Assembly (NCBI GenBank): GCA_963796785.1 | Contig: CAWCMW010000006.1 | Location: 46,482 to 110,481, forward strand | Length of the DNA: 64,000 nt | From: an uncultured Acidobacteriaceae bacterium | GTDB taxonomy: Bacteria; Acidobacteriota; Terriglobia; Terriglobales; Acidobacteriaceae | Direction of reading: 5' to 3' | Part shown: positions 33,961-41,058 of the stretch, one piece after another | Layout: every line of letters starts with the position of its first letter | Position numbering within the stretch: the first letter of the stretch is position 1 | Program-made: the position numbers and the translations under genes | The notes under the pieces: generated by a model | The model's input: the letters and a program-made list of their open reading frames with translations, nothing else | Database searches by the model: none | What the model was told of the DNA's origin: nothing

Positions 33961-35070
33961 TTAAGCGTCGCGCAAAAGCGGCTCAGGCTTGAACCCTCGC
34001 TGGATGGCCATAAGGCCCGCGCGCAGAAAGCCGAGCGTGTGCGCCATCCCCGCATGCCAGGGCGCTGAACAGGTCATCTGCGGGGCGTGGTCGGGAATCA
34101 CAACGCCGTCGAAGCCGTTCTTGTCGAGAAGATAGAGGATGCGCAGCATGTCAACTTCGCCGTCATCGATAAAGGTTTCGTGATAGTGCGGAGCCTTGCC
34201 GGCAATATTGCGAAAGTGAACATAGGCGATGCGATGCTGGCTGCTGTAACGATCGACGGTGTCGTAAATATCGCCTTCAGTCATCTCGGCCAGCGTGCCT
34301 AGGCAGAACTCAAGCATGTTTGACGGGCTCGGTGAAATATCGATCAGCCGTTGATACATGGCCTGCTGATAAACCAGCCGCGGCTGGTGGCGCATCGTCG
34401 GCGTGGGCGGATCGTCAGGATGCGCTGCGAGGCGGACACCGGCTTTTTCCGCAACCGGCAGCGCCTCCTCAAGGAACCGCTGGAGACGCCGCCACAACTC
34501 GTCGTGCGAAATGATCGGTAGCGTGCCCGGCGGCGCATTGGGGTCGACAATCATGTTCCAGACCTGGCCGTTGGGGATGGGCGTATCGACCAGGCCGTCC
34601 ATGCCAACGGATTCTGCTCCGCCGCGCGCAAAGGGTCCGCTGGTGCGGCCTGCGACACCTGCAATCGAGAAGTTGTAGCCGAATGTCGGAATGCCGGCCT
34701 CGCCCACGGCGCGCAGGATCGCGAACACATTCTGCATATGCTGCGCGCGCCGGGGCCCGTCGAGAAGAACGTCGTACCAGTGGGCGGGGTCGAAGTTTTC
34801 TATCGCCTCGAGTTTCAGCCCGGCACCCTCGACTTGCTTGCGAAGCGCGATCAGCTCTGCGGCCGTCCAAAGGCGATTGGGATCCCCGGCCACGCCCCAC
34901 GGCTGATCTTTGCCGCCGGTCGGCTGATTATTGGATGGATTCGCGCTCCCCTGCCGGAAGTAGTCGACCAGGTGGACGATCACATGGGTGCAACCAGCCT
35001 GCACGGCGAATGCATAATACTCGTCGTTCAGCATGTGCCGGTAAAGTCCCAGACCGAGCTTCATATTCAT
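33961..35070 (-). CDS. uxuA: Mannonate dehydratase
   Basis: AEKAGVRLAAHPDDPP, FCLGT, VHFRN, ETFIDDG, PDHAP. Confidence 0.9.
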   Translation of the reverse strand: MNMKLGLGLYRHMLNDEYYAFAVQAGCTHVIVHLVDYFRQGSANPSNNQPTGGKDQPWGVAGDPNRLWTAAELIALRKQVEGAGLKLEAIENFDPAHWYDVLLDGPRRAQHMQNVFAILRAVGEAGIPTFGYNFSIAGVAGRTSGPFARGGAESVGMDGLVDTPIPNGQVWNMIVDPNAPPGTLPIISHDELWRRLQRFLEEALPVAEKAGVRLAAHPDDPPTPTMRHQPRLVYQQAMYQRLIDISPSPSNMLEFCLGTLAEMTEGDIYDTVDRYSSQHRIAYVHFRNIAGKAPHYHETFIDDGEVDMLRILYLLDKNGFDGVVIPDHAPQMTCSAPWHAGMAHTLGFLRAGLMAIQRGFKPEPLLRDA

Positions 35071-35138
35071 CCTGAGCCAGTGTAGTTCAGGCCGCAAAAA
35101 GAGCGGCGAAAGGCCGGCGAAACTGGCGTTTCAAATAC

Positions 35139-35168
35139 TTGTCAAAAGATAAAAAGTTCGTGTATTGT
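35139..35168 (+). promoter_or_regulatory. Putative sigma70 promoter
   Basis: TTGTCA (35139-44) - 18 nt - TATTGT (35163-68) in an AT-rich patch. Confidence 0.5.
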
Positions 35169-35174
35169 CAAATA

Positions 35175-35361
35175 CCTGCCGCCGGCCTCCCTCGCCGGTG
35201 CGCCCAACCGGGCCTTCCCTGTTTGCAGGCCGGATGGGCACGAAGGCTGCGCGCCGAAGGTGCGTTGCCTGGTACTTGTTGCGGCGGCGCGCACCACGAG
35301 GGTCCAACATCAAGCCTGCCTCCCCCGTAGGCCACAGGACTCAATCGTGGAGGAGGCTTGT
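35175..35361 (+). promoter_or_regulatory. Structured 5' leader, candidate riboswitch-like element
   Basis: Multibranch fold closed by CCCTCG(35189-94)/CGAGGG(35297-302); hairpin CAAGCCT-g-CCTCC(35311-23)/GGAGG-AGGCTTG(35349-60) covers the SD of the downstream gene. Confidence 0.45.
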
Positions 35362-35907
35362 GTGATCGAAGTACAAGAGCAATTCCTGTCGCCTTCAACG
35401 GGGGTCAGGCGGCCCATTCATCTGGTAGGCGAGCAGCCCACGCTGCTGCGCAACAACCGCGTTTTGATCTTCCTCACCTTCTTGGGCAGCATTGCCGCGC
35501 TTGGCGTGTCGCTGTGTATGGTTGTCGTCGCGCTCATGTCCTTTCTCCCGTTCAGCGCGCTCAACCCTGATCGCTTTGCGGCCGGGGCGCTCTGGGCGCT
35601 CGGAGCGTGGCTCATGGCGATGTCGCAGGTCTATCTGTGGAGACAGGGAAACCTGATGGCCCAATGCTCGGTCCTGCTCGACAAGCGCGGAGCGTACTTC
35701 CGCCTCGCCAACACGAAGGGCGAGGTATTCATGCCTTGGAACCAGATTGAGGCTGTCCGCTACAAGCGGATCGAGAATGCACAGAAGTTCACGATCCTCG
35801 GTTCGGATACGAGCATTGTGACCTTCACGTCTTACAGCTTTTACCGGCCAAGGAGAGTGGCGCGACTGATCGCGGAACATGCCGGACTGCCGCTGGTGAG
35901 AGGATAA
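35362..35907 (+). CDS. Hypothetical membrane protein (2 TM plus possible PH-like domain)
   Basis: GTG start after GGAGG; two TM helices, then LDKRGAYFRL..FMPWNQIEAV. Confidence 0.7.
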   Translation: MIEVQEQFLSPSTGVRRPIHLVGEQPTLLRNNRVLIFLTFLGSIAALGVSLCMVVVALMSFLPFSALNPDRFAAGALWALGAWLMAMSQVYLWRQGNLMAQCSVLLDKRGAYFRLANTKGEVFMPWNQIEAVRYKRIENAQKFTILGSDTSIVTFTSYSFYRPRRVARLIAEHAGLPLVRG

Positions 35908-35979
35908 CGCGCAAGTTGCGCTCACATCATCTTGCAGCGCACAAGCGATCGCGTGCATCTGAAGCCAGCGCGAACTCCG

Positions 35980-36555
35980 TCATCGTTCGACGCGCGGATC
36001 AGCGAGTAGCGCGTTCACCTGGCTCTCGATCACCCGCACATCCGTTTCGCCCTGAAAGCGGGCGCGCACCACGCCGTTTCTATCGATGAGGAAAGTAAGC
36101 GGCAACCCGAGCACGCCGCCATAGCGCGCGGCGAGCCTTTCATCGCCCATGGCCACGGGGTAGTTCAACTTGAGCCGCTCCAAAACGCGGCGCGCGGGGG
36201 CAGCGCTGTCATCCATGGAGATGCCAATCACCTGGAATCCCTGCTGGGCGTGCTGCCGTTGCCATGTGGCAAAGACCGGCATTTCCACCAGGCACGGCGC
36301 ACACCACGTGGCCCAGAAGTTGAGCAGCACAACCTTGCCGCGAAAGGCAGCGAGGCGCAGCGGATGGCCGTCAAGGCCGTTGAGCGTGAAGCCAGGCGCT
36401 TTCTGGTTGATTAGATGGTCCGCCGCCAGGCCGGCGGGCGCCGACACCGCAAGAAACCCAGCGAAGAAACCGGCGATCAAAACGCGGCGCCAGGTGCGGC
36501 TCAGGTTGCAGCGCGCAGCACGCGGCCACGACGCCGGATTAACGGCCGCCTGCAA
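35980..36555 (-). CDS. TlpA family thiol-disulfide oxidoreductase
   Basis: GKVVLLNFWATWCAPC, GLPLTFLIDRNG. Confidence 0.9.
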   Translation of the reverse strand: MQAAVNPASWPRAARCNLSRTWRRVLIAGFFAGFLAVSAPAGLAADHLINQKAPGFTLNGLDGHPLRLAAFRGKVVLLNFWATWCAPCLVEMPVFATWQRQHAQQGFQVIGISMDDSAAPARRVLERLKLNYPVAMGDERLAARYGGVLGLPLTFLIDRNGVVRARFQGETDVRVIESQVNALLADPRVER

Positions 36556-37037
36556 CGGGAAACCCCTTGCTCACCCAATCGTCGCCGAAGTTCTGGGCCA
36601 GATAGAGGACCTTCACGCGCGTGAATCTCATCTCGTGCAGCAGGCTATACGCCGGGCCAACATTGGGGCAGCGATTCCACGGACAGCACCCGCAATAAAG
36701 GACGATGAAGGTCGTGCGCGGCAGTGAGGAGACGCGGCCGCGCAACAGCGCGATGCCTTCAGCCTGCGAGCCGGCTCCGGCATATTCCGCGCCGGGAATG
36801 TGGGCCTGGTCAAACATCATGCGCGAGCCCACCTGCAAAATGAGCGGCTTCTCCGCGCCGCTGCGCGCGAAGCAGCAGATTGAGTTCATCGGGCTGGATG
36901 AGCTGTGCCGCTGGAATGGTGGATGCGCTCGCAGGCTGCGGCTCTGCCCATTGTGCCGCCGCTCGAGCCGGCTGCAGCGCCAGACAAAACATCGCCGCGG
37001 CGGCAACGACCGCCGTTCTTATGAAACTCGATGACAT
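36539..37037 (-). CDS. Exported rhodanese-like domain protein; frameshift near 36880
   Basis: Signal peptide, AHIPGA, IVLYCGCCPW..CPN, DWVSKGFP. Confidence 0.8.
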
Positions 37038-37172
37038 AAAGGATTCTCTGTACCCAGTGTAGTCCCGAATGACACATTTCGACGGCGCCGCCGGGCGCGG
37101 GCAACTGTGAGTCCCCGAAAAAACTAGCCGCAAAATGCAAGCCACGCAGTGCGACCCGGAAAAAATGCCCCC

Positions 37173-37207
37173 AAATTGAAAACGCCAGAGACCGAAGCCT
37201 CTGGCGT
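37173..37207 (-). terminator. Intrinsic terminator
   Basis: Minus strand ACGCCAGAGGC-TTCG-GTCTCTGGCGT followed by TTTCAATTT. Confidence 0.75.
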
Positions 37208-38046
37208 CTCAATCTTGATGATCAGGTAGTACAACCGGCTGTCGCGTCCCTCGGCTACCCCAGCGGCGAACCTGCAGCTTTCGCTGCCGCTCCTTCCTCT
37301 GGCTGCGCTGGTGCGCTGCTTTCAGCTTGCGCCTACTCACCCGCTCTCCGGCTCGACCGAAGGCCGACTTCCCCGGCTCGGATCGGTGTTTTCTCGCCTG
37401 GCTCGACTGGTGGCAAGCACCCGGCTTTCACCGCATGCTACGCACTTCCTGCCGACTGGCTGCCAACCTCCCAACTTGCGTTGGTGTCCAACCTCCAGCT
37501 AGGCCTGCGATTACTCCCGACTCACATCTGGCGTCGTCCTTCAGCTCGGCTGGCTCGAACAACCTCCGGCTTTCGCCGTCTGCTGTTGCAGCTTCCAGCT
37601 TGCGCCTTCCGCTGCTGCAACCTGCAAGCTTGCGCCCGCCTGTCGCCCCCGTTTGCCAAACCGGTGGTGATCCTCCGACTCGCATCGGCTGTTTCACCCT
37701 CCGGCTTTACCGGTTTCGATCCGCCGGGCTTGCGCCTGGCGTCTCATACCTCCGGCTGGGCCTTTGATACGCCCCTAACTTCAACCGAACCTTGCATCGC
37801 CAGCTGAGCCGTCGATGAGTATTCCGTTTCCGCCGGTTCGCGTATCTTCCGGATCTGTCAGCTAAAACAACTTTCGGCTTGCGCCGACTTTTGCATCCTC
37901 TGACGCGGCCAGCGATCCCTCTTCGGCTTTCGCCTCAGGTTTCACCCTCTGGCTGGGTTAGCGGCGATTTTCCGATTCTCATCGGCTTTTCGTTCCACCA
38001 ACCGTTCCGGCAACCAACTCCCGATGCCCTACTAGGCTCATCAGTT
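37173..38046 (-). ncRNA. Candidate large structured ncRNA made of ~49-nt GNRA-capped hairpin modules
   Basis: No credible ORF; 13 GNRA tetraloop hairpins, all on the minus strand, mostly 46-51 nt apart; covarying basal stems; 5'/3' end pairing; flanking promoter and terminator. Confidence 0.75.
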
Positions 38047-38052
38047 GAAGTG

Positions 38053-38082
38053 ACAGTACGTCCGTTGAATCTGTGGATGCAA
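38053..38082 (-). promoter_or_regulatory. Putative sigma70 promoter of the ncRNA
   Basis: Minus strand TTGCAT (38082-77) - 18 nt - TACTGT (38058-53); predicted start near 38046. Confidence 0.55.
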
Positions 38083-39052
38083 GTGCAAAAGACAAGTAAA
38101 TTTGTGGATTTCACCAAGGTTGGTGCAGAGTGAAGACTTTCTGAATTTGCGCCGGTGTTATGGCTCACATTTGCACAGCAGCGACCGCGAAAACCGAGAG
38201 ATGGCCGGTGGATTTTTCTCCGGACGCGCGAGGAAATTGGCCGCGCAATCCGCATTTTTCGAGGGGTCCCCCCCACTGGGGGCCCCCCGCCCCTTTTGGC
38301 CAAATACGTCATGCGACAGGAGCTTGCGAGCTGGGTTCTCCTCTAAGTCTTTTGTTCTAAGGAATCATTTCTGCAAAGTCGTCCGTCGATTACAGTTGTC
38401 TGCGTTCTCGCAGACGGTGGATGGAGAGCGGCGAACCGCTGCGCTCCTCGAAACTCGAATTGCTCTCAGTATGCGCCGGAAGCCGGAAATAATCGGCAAA
38501 CTTGGCGGAAATATTTGGCGAGTGGATTCAGGGGGTTGCGAGGAAAATGTGCGAGGAGGGGCTTGACGTGGACCGTTTGATCGTTGTGATTGCTTTACCG
38601 GTGAAGCTTCGCTTGGGCCAAAGAGAGCGACTATATCGCAGGAGCGCGACGAAGAAGGATTTTTCCAGGGAACGGATGGGCCGCTTTCCAATGCACGAAA
38701 CAGGCCTCCTGAGCGCGCTCTTCTCCTCTGCTATAACTTAGATCACCGTCATCATGGAAGATTCATCTGTCAGGGAGATTGGGGCGTGCGTTCACGTTGC
38801 ATTCGGGTGAGCCCCAGCAATTCGGGTACTAAGAGGGCGCGACGCTCACGCAGTCCGGACTGACATTGGCATGGGTGCAAGCTGGCTAGGATTTGACAGC
38901 GATTTCCGTACGGCGGAAGAACGCAGCAGGAGGGACAATATGGAAGTAAAGAAGAATAAAGCGCGCTCGTCGCCGCGCCCCTCAAGAAGAATCTCCCGCC
39001 TGGTCCTGTTTACAAAGAGACCGGCGAGCCCTCGTGGCGAGCTTCGCTGGCT

Positions 39053-40843
39053 ATGAATGAATCGTCTGGTTTCATGAGAAAACCGACCTTGCGAGCGACG
39101 GCTCAGAACTATCTGCCTGCAGTCGGTTGCGCGCTGACGCCAATTCTCTGCTTCTTGGCGATTCGCCCGTTTGCTGAGATCGGGATTGTCGATGATTGGT
39201 CTTACATCAAGACAGTGCAGGTTCTCGCCCAGACCGGTCACATCGTCTATAACGGCTGGGCGACCGCAATTCTCGGTTGGCAACTCTACTTTGGAGCATT
39301 GTTTGTCAAGGTCTTCGGATTCTCCTTCACAGCGGTTCGCTACAGCACAGTCGCCGAAACCATGGCGACAGCATTTTTGCTGCAACGCACTTTCGTTCGG
39401 GCGGGCTTGAACTCCTGGAATGCAACGCTCGCTACCTTCGCCTTGATTCTTTCGCCGGTCTGCTTTCCCCTGGAATTCACCTTCATGACCGACATTTCTG
39501 GACTCCTGATCATTGTGGTCTGCCTTTACATGTGTCTGCGGGCTTTGGCTGCGGAAAGCGAACGCTCGGCCATAATCTGGATTGTCTCCGCCGGATTGTT
39601 GAATGCACTGGCGGGGACTGCTCGGCAGATCGCCTGGCTTGGAGTGCTGGTCATGGTTCCCTCCACGCTCTGGTTGTTGAGGCGAAACCGGCGAGTACTC
39701 GTTGCGGGCTGCGTGTCCTGCGTTGCTGGAGCGTGCATTGTCGTATCCGCGATGCACTGGTTTGCCGGGCAACCGTATTCCATTCCGGAACCTTCGGTTC
39801 GCGACGCGATTAACCTGACCTCGTTGGGAAAAGCCGCAATCGTTGGCCTGCACATTACCGGTCAATCTGCGGTTCTGGCACTGCCGATGCTGCTGGTATT
39901 CGCCGGGGCTCTCCGCTCTTGGAATCGTCGCATGGCCGCGGTCTATTTGACCGGGCTTTGCTGCTTCGCCTTCCCTGTGATTGCTGCGATCCTCGCCGGA
40001 AAGTTGAGCCCGAGGTTCGTTCTTTTTTATAACGACCACTGGATTATAAGCAGATTCCAAAACTTGAAAGCCATTTCGGCCTGGGGAATTCACCTCGGCG
40101 CTGGTTACAACATTCTTCGGCTGTTGATTCTTCTGGCGACGCTGCTGGGCGGTCTCAGTCTTATTGCTTGCTTGTTCGCGGGGGCGCATTACCGTCCCAC
40201 ACATCAACGAGCTGCAACCGCTATCACATGGCAGAGACTGGGAGTTATACTGGGCCCCTTTACAATCACTTACCTCGGTTTCCTGGGGCCCAGAGCATTG
40301 CGCGGCTGGTTCGACGATCGATACCTGGTGCCGCTGCTCGCAATTCTCCTTCTTGTGCTGGCCCGCTTTTACCAGGAACATGTGAGAGAAAATCTGCCAG
40401 CGGCGTGCGTCCTGTTGATCGCCATCTTTGGCGCATTCAGTCTTGCGGCGACGCACGATATGTTCGCTCACTATCGCGGGTATATATCAGCAATTGGCCA
40501 GCTTCGCTCAATTGGAACGCCGGATACTGCCATTCTTGGGCCGTGGGAATTCGAGGGGTGGACTGAAGTTGAGAAAGCGGGATACATTGACGACATCAGA
40601 CTTCGGGTTCCTAAAGGAGCCTGGACCCCTCCGCCGGTGCGTTCACTGCCGGCTAGCTGTCAGGGGTTAAACGTCCTCTTTCTGCGAGGAACCCCGGCAA
40701 TCAAGCCTGTTTACGCGATCGTTGACGATCCAACAGGGTGCGGCGGACAACCGGCTCTTCCCCCGGTCACATCTGGAACCTGGATTGCTCCACAGAGCGA
40801 TTCGATTTATACGGTTCGGCTGTCTGTCGCCTCTGGTGACTGA
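39053..40843 (+). CDS. GT-C-like membrane glycosyltransferase (ArnT/PMT-like)
   Basis: First loop DDWSY, FTFMTD, RQ, DRYLVP; about 13 TM helices plus soluble C-terminus. Confidence 0.7.
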   Translation: MNESSGFMRKPTLRATAQNYLPAVGCALTPILCFLAIRPFAEIGIVDDWSYIKTVQVLAQTGHIVYNGWATAILGWQLYFGALFVKVFGFSFTAVRYSTVAETMATAFLLQRTFVRAGLNSWNATLATFALILSPVCFPLEFTFMTDISGLLIIVVCLYMCLRALAAESERSAIIWIVSAGLLNALAGTARQIAWLGVLVMVPSTLWLLRRNRRVLVAGCVSCVAGACIVVSAMHWFAGQPYSIPEPSVRDAINLTSLGKAAIVGLHITGQSAVLALPMLLVFAGALRSWNRRMAAVYLTGLCCFAFPVIAAILAGKLSPRFVLFYNDHWIISRFQNLKAISAWGIHLGAGYNILRLLILLATLLGGLSLIACLFAGAHYRPTHQRAATAITWQRLGVILGPFTITYLGFLGPRALRGWFDDRYLVPLLAILLLVLARFYQEHVRENLPAACVLLIAIFGAFSLAATHDMFAHYRGYISAIGQLRSIGTPDTAILGPWEFEGWTEVEKAGYIDDIRLRVPKGAWTPPPVRSLPASCQGLNVLFLRGTPAIKPVYAIVDDPTGCGGQPALPPVTSGTWIAPQSDSIYTVRLSVASGD

Positions 40844-41058
40844 AAAGCCCATCGAAACGGCGAGGCTCTGAATCCGCTTGGCGGCATCAGGACGTGCCCG
40901 GCCACCACGGATTGATGGCGAACTCGCATGGCCTCAAGTTCTGTGTCGAAGACGCTATAACCTCCTGAGCGCGCCAGGAGCGGGAGACGATGGTAGCAAC
41001 TGAAGGTGATGAAGTGGAAAGCGCCGGAGTGATGGAACCGAACGAGTCCGCGAGGCAT
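40807..41058 (-). pseudogene. Truncated REP-associated tyrosine transposase (RAYT, Y1 family)
   Basis: MPRGLVRFHHSGAFHFITFSCYHRLPLL..VVAGHVLMP; similarity ends just before the HUH motif. Confidence 0.75.

Follow-up and report, generated by a model that had tools for sequence, protein, structure and literature searches.

Large non-coding RNAs (ncRNAs) are rare in bacteria, and several of them form RNA-only cages. The MISL (Mostly Independently Structured, Large) RNA of Verrucomicrobia is a large RNA with many largely independent hairpins, a description that applies equally to the RNA considered here. MISL has a membership in Rfam, according to a preprint (bioRxiv 10.1101/2024.02.24.581671). 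For GOLLD, ROOL and OLE, a cryo-EM report (PMC12286853) describes RNA-only multimers formed through A-minor and kissing contacts; ROOL is also reported to match 16S rRNA in abundance, although it was non-essential in the one strain concerned. The naRNA4 RNA of E. coli, a repeat-derived hairpin RNA, condenses DNA with HU (PMC4550694). Engineered tectoRNA dimers employ an 11-bp loop-to-receptor spacing, and GCRA loops bind the tested 11-nt and IC3-type receptors poorly (PMC2275092, including its Table 1).

The stretch considered here is a stand-alone gene for an ~870-base folded ncRNA built from repeated ~49-base hairpin arms ("spokes"). It lies in a 64,000-nt window, i.e. the whole stretch of DNA analyzed (GCA_963796785.1, CAWCMW010000006.1, 46,482-110,481), in which all coordinates are plus-strand positions; the query genome (G000) comprises 4.28 Mb and is 88% complete. 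The RNA resembles GOLLD, ROOL and OLE in its 600-900 nt size class, its stand-alone gene and its multi-junction fold. It differs from these three in being composed of one ~49-nt unit in variable number, rather than having a fixed fold, in having no Rfam match, in that no pseudoknot or kissing loop was noticed in it and in being Acidobacteriaceae-restricted, and from GOLLD and ROOL in that it is not in a prophage or tRNA island, its neighbors being metabolic and transport genes and the nearest tRNA being 18 kb away. Like CsrB, RsmY and RsmZ, it is stand-alone and terminator-ended, with repeated hairpins in variable number; unlike them, its loops are GNRA rather than GGA, ANGGA is depleted, its arms are long and rigid, and no CsrA was found in G000. 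As in tectoRNA (PMC2275092), the GNRA tip and an internal motif of the same hairpin are separated by roughly one turn of helix, but the RNA is natural and multivalent, with no recognized 11-nt or IC3 receptor and a dominance of GCRA loops, and its assembly is predicted. Like naRNA4/REP325 (PMC4550694), it is an ncRNA of tandem palindromic repeats, but is single-copy and far larger, with no dispersed DNA repeat family behind it. The design, i.e. a single hairpin unit in variable number and with fixed geometry, has not been seen in those families of large bacterial ncRNAs. Literature searches, the coverage of which left out most subscription papers, returned no description of this RNA; it represents a real, and apparently undescribed, family of large ncRNAs with a repeat-built design.

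Results

Locus and hairpin array

The features of the locus, all on the minus strand, are as follows.

37178..38046 (-): RNA gene, ~870 nt, from +1 at 38046 (plus or minus 1) to the terminator U-tract, as placed by contig joints
38021..38043 (-): closing helix P1, 5' strand, interrupted; pairs with 37238-37216
37216..37238 (-): closing helix P1, 3' strand; pairs with 38021-38043
37855..38010 (-): 5' domain with three GNRA spokes (37977, 37928, 37879) and a multiway junction, from loop conservation and compensatory stem changes
37766..37846 (-): core rod, two adjacent repeat units with strands swapped, from covariation
37245..37760 (-): main spoke array with GNRA loops at 37730, 37680, 37630, 37600, 37571, 37522, 37476, 37426, 37327 and 37279, and CCGA at 37378, from loop conservation
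37173..37207 (-): intrinsic-terminator-like hairpin with UUCG loop and U-rich tail, conserved across loci
38053..38082 (-): sigma-70-type promoter, -35 TTGCAT at 38082-38077 and -10 TACTGT at 38058-38053; conserved, consensus scanner negative
38078-38070 (-): second TNCACA box, overlapping the end of the -35 element and the spacer; conserved
38101..38109 (-): first TNCACA box; conserved, but part of the search pattern
38110..38127 (-): palindrome TGCACC-N6-GGTGAA, putative regulator site ~65-80 nt upstream of +1; near-invariant in 52/52 promoters

All of the GNRA loops listed above had been assigned by an earlier note on this DNA, made from the letters alone, and each was found at its position with a stem of 3-6 bp. 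The restriction to the minus strand also held: counting stems of 3 bp or more, that strand has 14 GNRA hairpins and the plus strand 0, the 14th being an overlapping GGGA at 37469. The degenerate CCGA loop at 37378 is likewise present, and is CCGA in 19/19 close relatives. The loops are spaced 46-51 nt apart as described, save for a cluster at 29-30 nt (37630/37600/37571) and two longer gaps. When only stems of 4 bp or more are counted, the nine GNRA hairpins per 878 nt are the maximum for the genome (all windows, 4.28 Mb), the runner-up locus having seven and lying inside protein-coding sequence. The minimum free energy of the minus strand is -389.7 kcal/mol (z -7.2), and 0/20 shuffles were equally good.

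With respect to the proposed promoter, TTGCAT, the 18-nt spacer and TACTGT are present as claimed, but a consensus scanner returned 0 sites and only 6/12 letters agree with consensus. Similarly, the C(UUCG)G hairpin (37207-37182) is present, but was missed by a consensus terminator scanner, its tail having only 4 T. Both assignments stand because they are conserved in relatives and placed by contig joints.

Transcription and ends

Words of the stretch occur in 24 RNA runs, which come from 19 studies of wetland, peat and soil, and in the contigs of the seven runs (seven studies) examined 37224-38023 was covered throughout. In one run (X1), 12,416 of 1,138,385 contig records (1.1%) fell on an 8-kb stretch; summed contig depth was 2e4-3e6 on the element versus at most 10 on its flanks in four runs, with depths of just 77-2,206 in another run (X23), cover was absent at 38056-38119 in 4/4 runs and fell sharply below 37224 in 3/4, values that measure neither level nor strand nor ends because they derive from contigs, the runs were chosen for the element and the flanks are strain-variable. 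Among 120 metagenome-collection loci, 17 of the 80 with flanks are on contigs that begin no more than 40 nt into the RNA and lack the promoter; we infer these 17 to be RNA assemblies. Contig starts cluster between +11 and +20, which might reflect trimming across P1.

In two loci (L229 and L271), the terminator tail is joined directly to the +1 base, with ends equivalent to 38046 and about 37178, which would be fitting for a minus-strand reading. A circular RNA was considered, since L229 is circular across the terminator-to-+1 joint, but was rejected because L271 has the same joint between two copies that are only 70% alike; library ligation or template switching would explain both. Separately, contigs in several RNA runs skip ~560 nt (window 37308-37869) between two similar spokes, representing either a short natural variant or template switching.

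Distribution and genomic context

G000 has a single copy of the RNA locus. BLAST searches gave matches in 16/36 same-genus genomes and in 0/24 from another family, and a search with a promoter pattern returned 118 loci (35/64 parts of the GTDB collection scanned; about 220 estimated in total), the titles of which bear Terracidiphilus, Acidobacteriaceae or higher Acidobacteriota names with one exception, a Muribaculaceae record without the RNA. A model of the core matched in 96/120 genus genomes, 91 of them at E < 1e-5, and a promoter model recovered six more among 25 retested weak or negative genus genomes. The RNA is thus present in at least 97 of the 120 sampled same-genus genomes, nearly always at one locus, and was not found by either model in 19/120, some of which are near-complete.

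Two members lie outside the genus, in two other genera of the family (G283 and G166), the latter being the one positive when the promoter model was run on 148 genomes of the family from outside the genus. A strong core match was found in none of 136 non-genus genomes of the order, nor was there any match in phage or plasmid collections. Ten of 11 core-pattern matches outside the genus were discounted, being without a profile match and, where inspected, looking coding; only that in G283 is real. Judging from these searches, the family is restricted to the Acidobacteriaceae lineage. Occurrence in viruses was also rejected, as 15/17 pattern matches in a viral collection are due to chance and two are chimeric contig ends. 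Pieces of the RNA are fused to RNA-virus-like and rRNA-like contigs at the contig ends of L188 and L196, and in L206 and L260; given the fusions to RNA-virus-like contigs, the RNA contaminates assembled virus records as chimeras.

The neighbors differ by clade (rhodanese-like and thioredoxin-like, MFS, TonB receptor, aminotransferase, cytochrome c). A gene-neighborhood search gave no partner gene accompanying the RNA, with neighbors being unrelated across clades, and no transposase, integrase or reverse transcriptase (RT) was among the recurring neighbors scanned. The same downstream rhodanese-like gene occurs in 22/86 loci and is absent in L002-L004 and other clades. The earlier note had called this gene a rhodanese, a name given by eye with no Pfam or NCBIfam match behind it, and had held that the ncRNA is not its leader, which is borne out by the changing neighbors. 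That gene (window 36539-37145, minus strand) is apparently split over two frames in G000 and is in one frame in L046. On the other side of the RNA gene, a short minus-strand ORF (window 40807-41058) is similar to a 175-residue ORF at G000:C7:174984 and has no Pfam match; by eye, we take it to be a fragment of a REP-associated tyrosine transposase-like gene. A second promoter block is present at a contig end in another genome (G220:C23:47037-47091), possibly reflecting a second copy or an assembly duplicate.

Comparison with known RNA families

A search of positions 35000-40000 against Rfam 15 (including OLE, GOLLD, ROOL and introns) gave four chance-level matches (E 3-4), far below cut-off; the same search on 12 homologous loci gave two chance-level matches, and on the whole window one tRNA. 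There was no Rfam match to MISL at E up to 5 here or up to 2 on the 12 loci, the model being without a positive control. The absence of Rfam matches agrees with the earlier statement that the RNA belongs to no known family.

Several specific identities were rejected. The genome has its own candidate for 6S RNA (RF00013, an ~190-nt rod with a central bubble) on C3 (G000:C3:480387-480571; 45.9 bits versus a cut-off of 46.4), its own RNase P RNA (RF00010) on C7 and its own tmRNA on C2. The RNase P RNA (C7:1122869-1123400) is itself unusual, comprising 532 nt versus a 367-position model, with long extra helices. Acido-Lenti-1 (RF01687, a 46-nt motif) has 21 matches elsewhere in G000 and none on contig C6; it behaves like a dispersed repeat in this genome, occurring at 21 places on C1, C2, C3, C5 and C7, nine of them over cut-off. 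Acido-1 (RF01686, 64 nt), which is not counted among the rejected identities, had no match in G000 or in the Rfam scans, but its control also matched nowhere. No 16S rRNA is assembled in G000. Hammerhead ribozymes have the signature CUGANGA, followed by stem II and GAAA; this identity was discarded because many members have UGGUGA in place of the 5' CUGAUGA, which moreover is base-paired to the 3' end, and there is no Rfam match.

An array of variable length and constant geometry

By a strict terminator rule, 88/97 long-flank loci yield a promoter-to-terminator element, and four more do so by a looser rule. The 88 include 82 distinct full-length copies of about 420 to 1,160 nt, in which the promoter block, closing helix and terminator are kept, whereas the middle consists of tandem ~49-nt GNRA-capped spokes in variable number, i.e. 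about five to over 20 across the genus. Loop-to-loop spacing is 47-51 nt in 642/1,032 intervals of the 82 copies, with harmonics near 98 and 147, and this geometry is kept while the sequence drifts (30 clusters at 75% identity). Arrays grow by duplication of whole units, with tandem periods being seen in L055 (period-100 x3.3, 92%) and L014 (period-148 x3.6, 76%), the latter a regular member of about 950 nt, as compared with about 420 nt for the short member L098; no recent tandem period is visible in the query array, which has diverged too far. The 5' spoke is duplicated in L008 (1384-1846).

Across 19 close relatives, GNRA is kept at 246/247 loop positions, with its inner letters being swapped: each of the ten GNRA loops of the main array is GNRA in 19/19 relatives, as are the 5'-domain loops at 37977 and 37928 (19/19 each) and 37879 (18/19). 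More widely, 883 hairpin loops are predicted across 52 representatives; GNRA accounts for at least 603, including 419 GCRA. Selection, as judged from these comparisons, is retaining arm length and GNRA tip class, and neither arm sequence nor arm number. In the query's clade, the spokes have become highly degenerate in sequence; a divergent clade (L322, L333 and L335) has an irregular array.

Fold and core module

For the 19 close relatives, RNAalifold predicted 256 pairs, 34 of them with compensatory changes, though some long-range pairs look wrong. The most conserved part of the RNA is a core module (37825-37813 with 37799-37786) consisting of a GAUG/CAUC helix, a CA bulge, a 2-bp helix, a small loop and a GAA/UUC helix. 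Among 45 distinct sequences, 94.8% of cells in the module are paired and covariation is 0.208 versus 0.120 +/- 0.009 in shuffles (0/500), a control that ignores relatedness, with slid controls giving at most 0.099; the outer pairs of the core rod also covary. A K-turn reading of the core was rejected by eye, because the would-be bulge GAA pairs with UUC and covaries (six compensatory cells).

The core model also matches downstream spokes, and a spoke-type module pattern has 78 matches in 30/52 representatives versus 3.2 +/- 2.0 in shuffles. Divergent members have the two strands of the module in the opposite order, with the entire array lying between them. We infer that the core would be formed by the 3' half of one unit pairing with the 5' half of the next. 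L031, L057, L334 and L340 have no CA-bulge module, or none that could be recognized; members of this sort may still keep the spokes. For P1, cognate 5'/3' duplexes average -20.8 kcal/mol versus -18.3 kcal/mol for non-cognate ones (52 representatives), with a weak covariation signal, and every clade retains paired 5'/3' ends interrupted by internal loops.

With respect to possible receptors for the tips, the distance from the loop down to the CA bulge is 9 nt in 91/141 motif occurrences (562 spokes). CCGG is 2.3-fold over shuffles (875 versus 384) and at fixed offsets from the tips, an excess that is in part expected in GC-rich stems. Halves of the 11-nt receptor are absent or depleted (5 versus 10.8 and 1 versus 3.5 expected), and no IC3-type receptor was recognized. 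Plain CC:GG helical receptors are present, and are indistinguishable from ordinary stems; tetraloop identity does not covary with positions within 26 nt on either side (corrected mutual information at most 0.025).

Promoter and a palindrome shared with dnaA

In 52 representatives, the A and T of the -10 element, the TTG of the -35 element, two TNCACA boxes 31 bp apart and the palindrome are invariant or nearly so. The search pattern included the palindrome right half, the first TNCACA box and the -35 TTG, the conservation of which is therefore partly by selection; outside the pattern, yet invariant in 52/52, are the -10 A and T and T, C, A, C and A of the second box. The TNCACA boxes are presumably DnaA-box-like, going by consensus; no cluster of perfect DnaA boxes was found in G000 against which to compare them.

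A matrix derived from the RNA promoters ranked the dnaA-rpmH intergenic region second in G000 (25.9 versus 29.6 for the RNA itself), followed by sites at an XRE-type gene and an imuA-like operon (family matches below cut-off). This ranking, from a matrix built on the RNA promoters alone, is the independent one; a later re-ranking, seeded with its own top matches, is circular. The palindrome is upstream of dnaA in 3/3 same-genus genomes with sequence there, and was not seen upstream of dnaA in two genomes of other genera, for which the stretch compared may be too short. In the form TGCACC-N6-GGTG(C/A)A, it marks a small candidate regulon (G000:C7:998814, C2:440282, C7:220157 and C3:72285) comprising dnaA/rpmH, an imuA-imuB-dnaE2-like operon, the XRE-type gene and a helix-turn-helix-like gene without a family match. 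The XRE-type gene (G000:C7:220311), bearing the palindrome in its own promoter, is a possible autoregulator and a candidate for the protein that binds the palindrome. For an NtrC or LexA regulon the result was negative: the palindrome was absent from the 350 nt preceding glnA/amtB/glnK and recA/lexA/uvrA, genes that were identified through short motifs and whose starts are approximate.

Discussion

The central proposal of the earlier note, i.e. an independently transcribed, periodic and structured ncRNA of ~870 nt, is upheld by homologues, covariation, frame-breaking indels, varying neighbors and metatranscriptome contigs. The variable array length, the strand-swapped core pair and the dnaA-like promoter palindrome are features beyond those it described.

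Most plausibly, the RNA would work like GOLLD and ROOL, while being a member of neither family. Our tentative model, to which we assign not quite an even chance, is that the spokes pack on one another via their GNRA tips, building an extendable RNA scaffold. Transcription would be driven by a sigma-70-type promoter belonging to the RNA gene and controlled by a regulator that also acts on dnaA, and the 5' and 3' ends would pair, closing and protecting the array. Each GNRA tip would dock into the minor groove of a neighboring spoke, the GCAA, GCGA and GAAA tips making A-minor contacts with tandem C:G pairs or with the CA-bulge module, which lies roughly a turn of helix beneath a tip, to give a compact scaffold that could grow or shrink by whole units. 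Such contacts could be made within one molecule or between molecules, and the resulting particle or lattice would be an abundant multivalent structural RNA. The A-minor self-assembly is a model borrowed from GOLLD, ROOL and OLE, as described in PMC12286853. The retention of arm length and GNRA class, with arm sequence and number left free, is the pattern that tertiary packing of this type would be expected to give. Docking is also favored by the CA-bulge distance, 9 nt being close to the 11-bp spacing of tectoRNA, by the CCGG excess at fixed offsets, by whole-unit growth and by the lack of an accompanying partner gene. It is in part disfavored by the depletion of 11-nt receptor halves, by tetraloop identity showing no covariation with nearby positions, by the poor binding of GCRA, the commonest loop here, to the tested receptors and by the members with no recognized CA-bulge module or with an irregular array, and the GNRA caps may only stabilize hairpins.

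An arm number that varies is as compatible with a sponge as with a lattice. A multivalent protein sponge or scaffold, in which each spoke is one site (the CA-bulge module or the GNRA hairpin) for an abundant non-CsrA protein and copy number sets capacity, is the main rival, a rather unlikely reading that nevertheless accounts for a stand-alone gene with one module repeated well beyond shuffled expectation, in both strand orders, as a portable binding site would be, and in variable copy number; against it are the failure of gene neighborhoods to reveal a partner and the strong degeneracy of spoke sequences in the query's clade. The CsrA-type version of this idea is rejected, since GGA is only 1.14-fold enriched and lies outside hairpin loops and ANGGA is depleted (331 versus 399 +/- 20); moreover, CsrA (PF02599) was not found in the 88% complete G000 (the control was positive in 3/14). 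The palindrome in common with dnaA and the two TNCACA boxes in the promoter, together with the precedent of naRNA4 (PMC4550694), would suit a nucleoid-organizing RNA with bulged arms that bind HU-like proteins and bridge DNA like naRNA4, its synthesis being tied to replication. We give this a slim chance, because there are no dispersed DNA repeats, with the unit and full-length profiles matching only the RNA locus in G000, and because both the regulator and the DnaA-box reading are inferred and the palindrome also precedes the imuA-like operon and two helix-turn-helix-like genes.

An RNA-polymerase-binding RNA of the 6S or Ms1 type, in which the function resides in the interrupted closing helix, with the spokes serving as stabilizing decoration, would be consistent with the paired ends and internal loops in every clade and with a stand-alone, near-universal gene in the genus. 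It is improbable, given a full-length 6S candidate elsewhere in G000 and no 6S or Ms1 match here, and it leaves the strict spoke geometry unexplained. Recent tandem duplications, and the failure of two models to find the RNA in 19/120 genus genomes, might instead suggest a transcribed neutral repeat or mobile element without RNA function, but a single locus per genome in nearly all cases, compensatory changes, the retention of GNRA at 246/247 positions, the lack of a transposase, integrase or RT among the recurring neighbors scanned and of matches in phage and plasmid collections make this very improbable; covariation already largely refutes it. We attach next to no probability to a protein-coding gene or a leader of the downstream rhodanese-like gene. 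Although ORFs of 89-146 residues overlap the stretch, and the same gene follows in 22/86 loci, 174/175 pairwise indels relative to the query (18 relatives; counts not independent) are not multiples of 3, there are no Pfam matches, a terminator intervenes and L002-L004 and other clades lack the downstream gene; this reading is refuted by the indel pattern and the changing neighbors.

The spoke-packing model, if correct, has a wider form, in which the RNA would be a counterpart of solenoid proteins, i.e. a ~49-nt unit in 5 to over 20 copies that swaps strands and self-assembles into an extendable filament, lattice or condensate, making it a major component of the cell in a common peat and soil bacterium, regulated with dnaA. 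We regard this extended version as distinctly unlikely in full. The family offers a natural size series (about 420-1,160 nt) for structural work and a direct test of extendable RNA repeat architectures. Because it is near-universal in a common genus and strong in metatranscriptomes, the RNA is likely an unannotated read sink in soil RNA studies. A link with replication or growth is hinted at by the promoter site in common with dnaA; given the putatively shared regulator, the RNA is likely tied to one or other of these processes.
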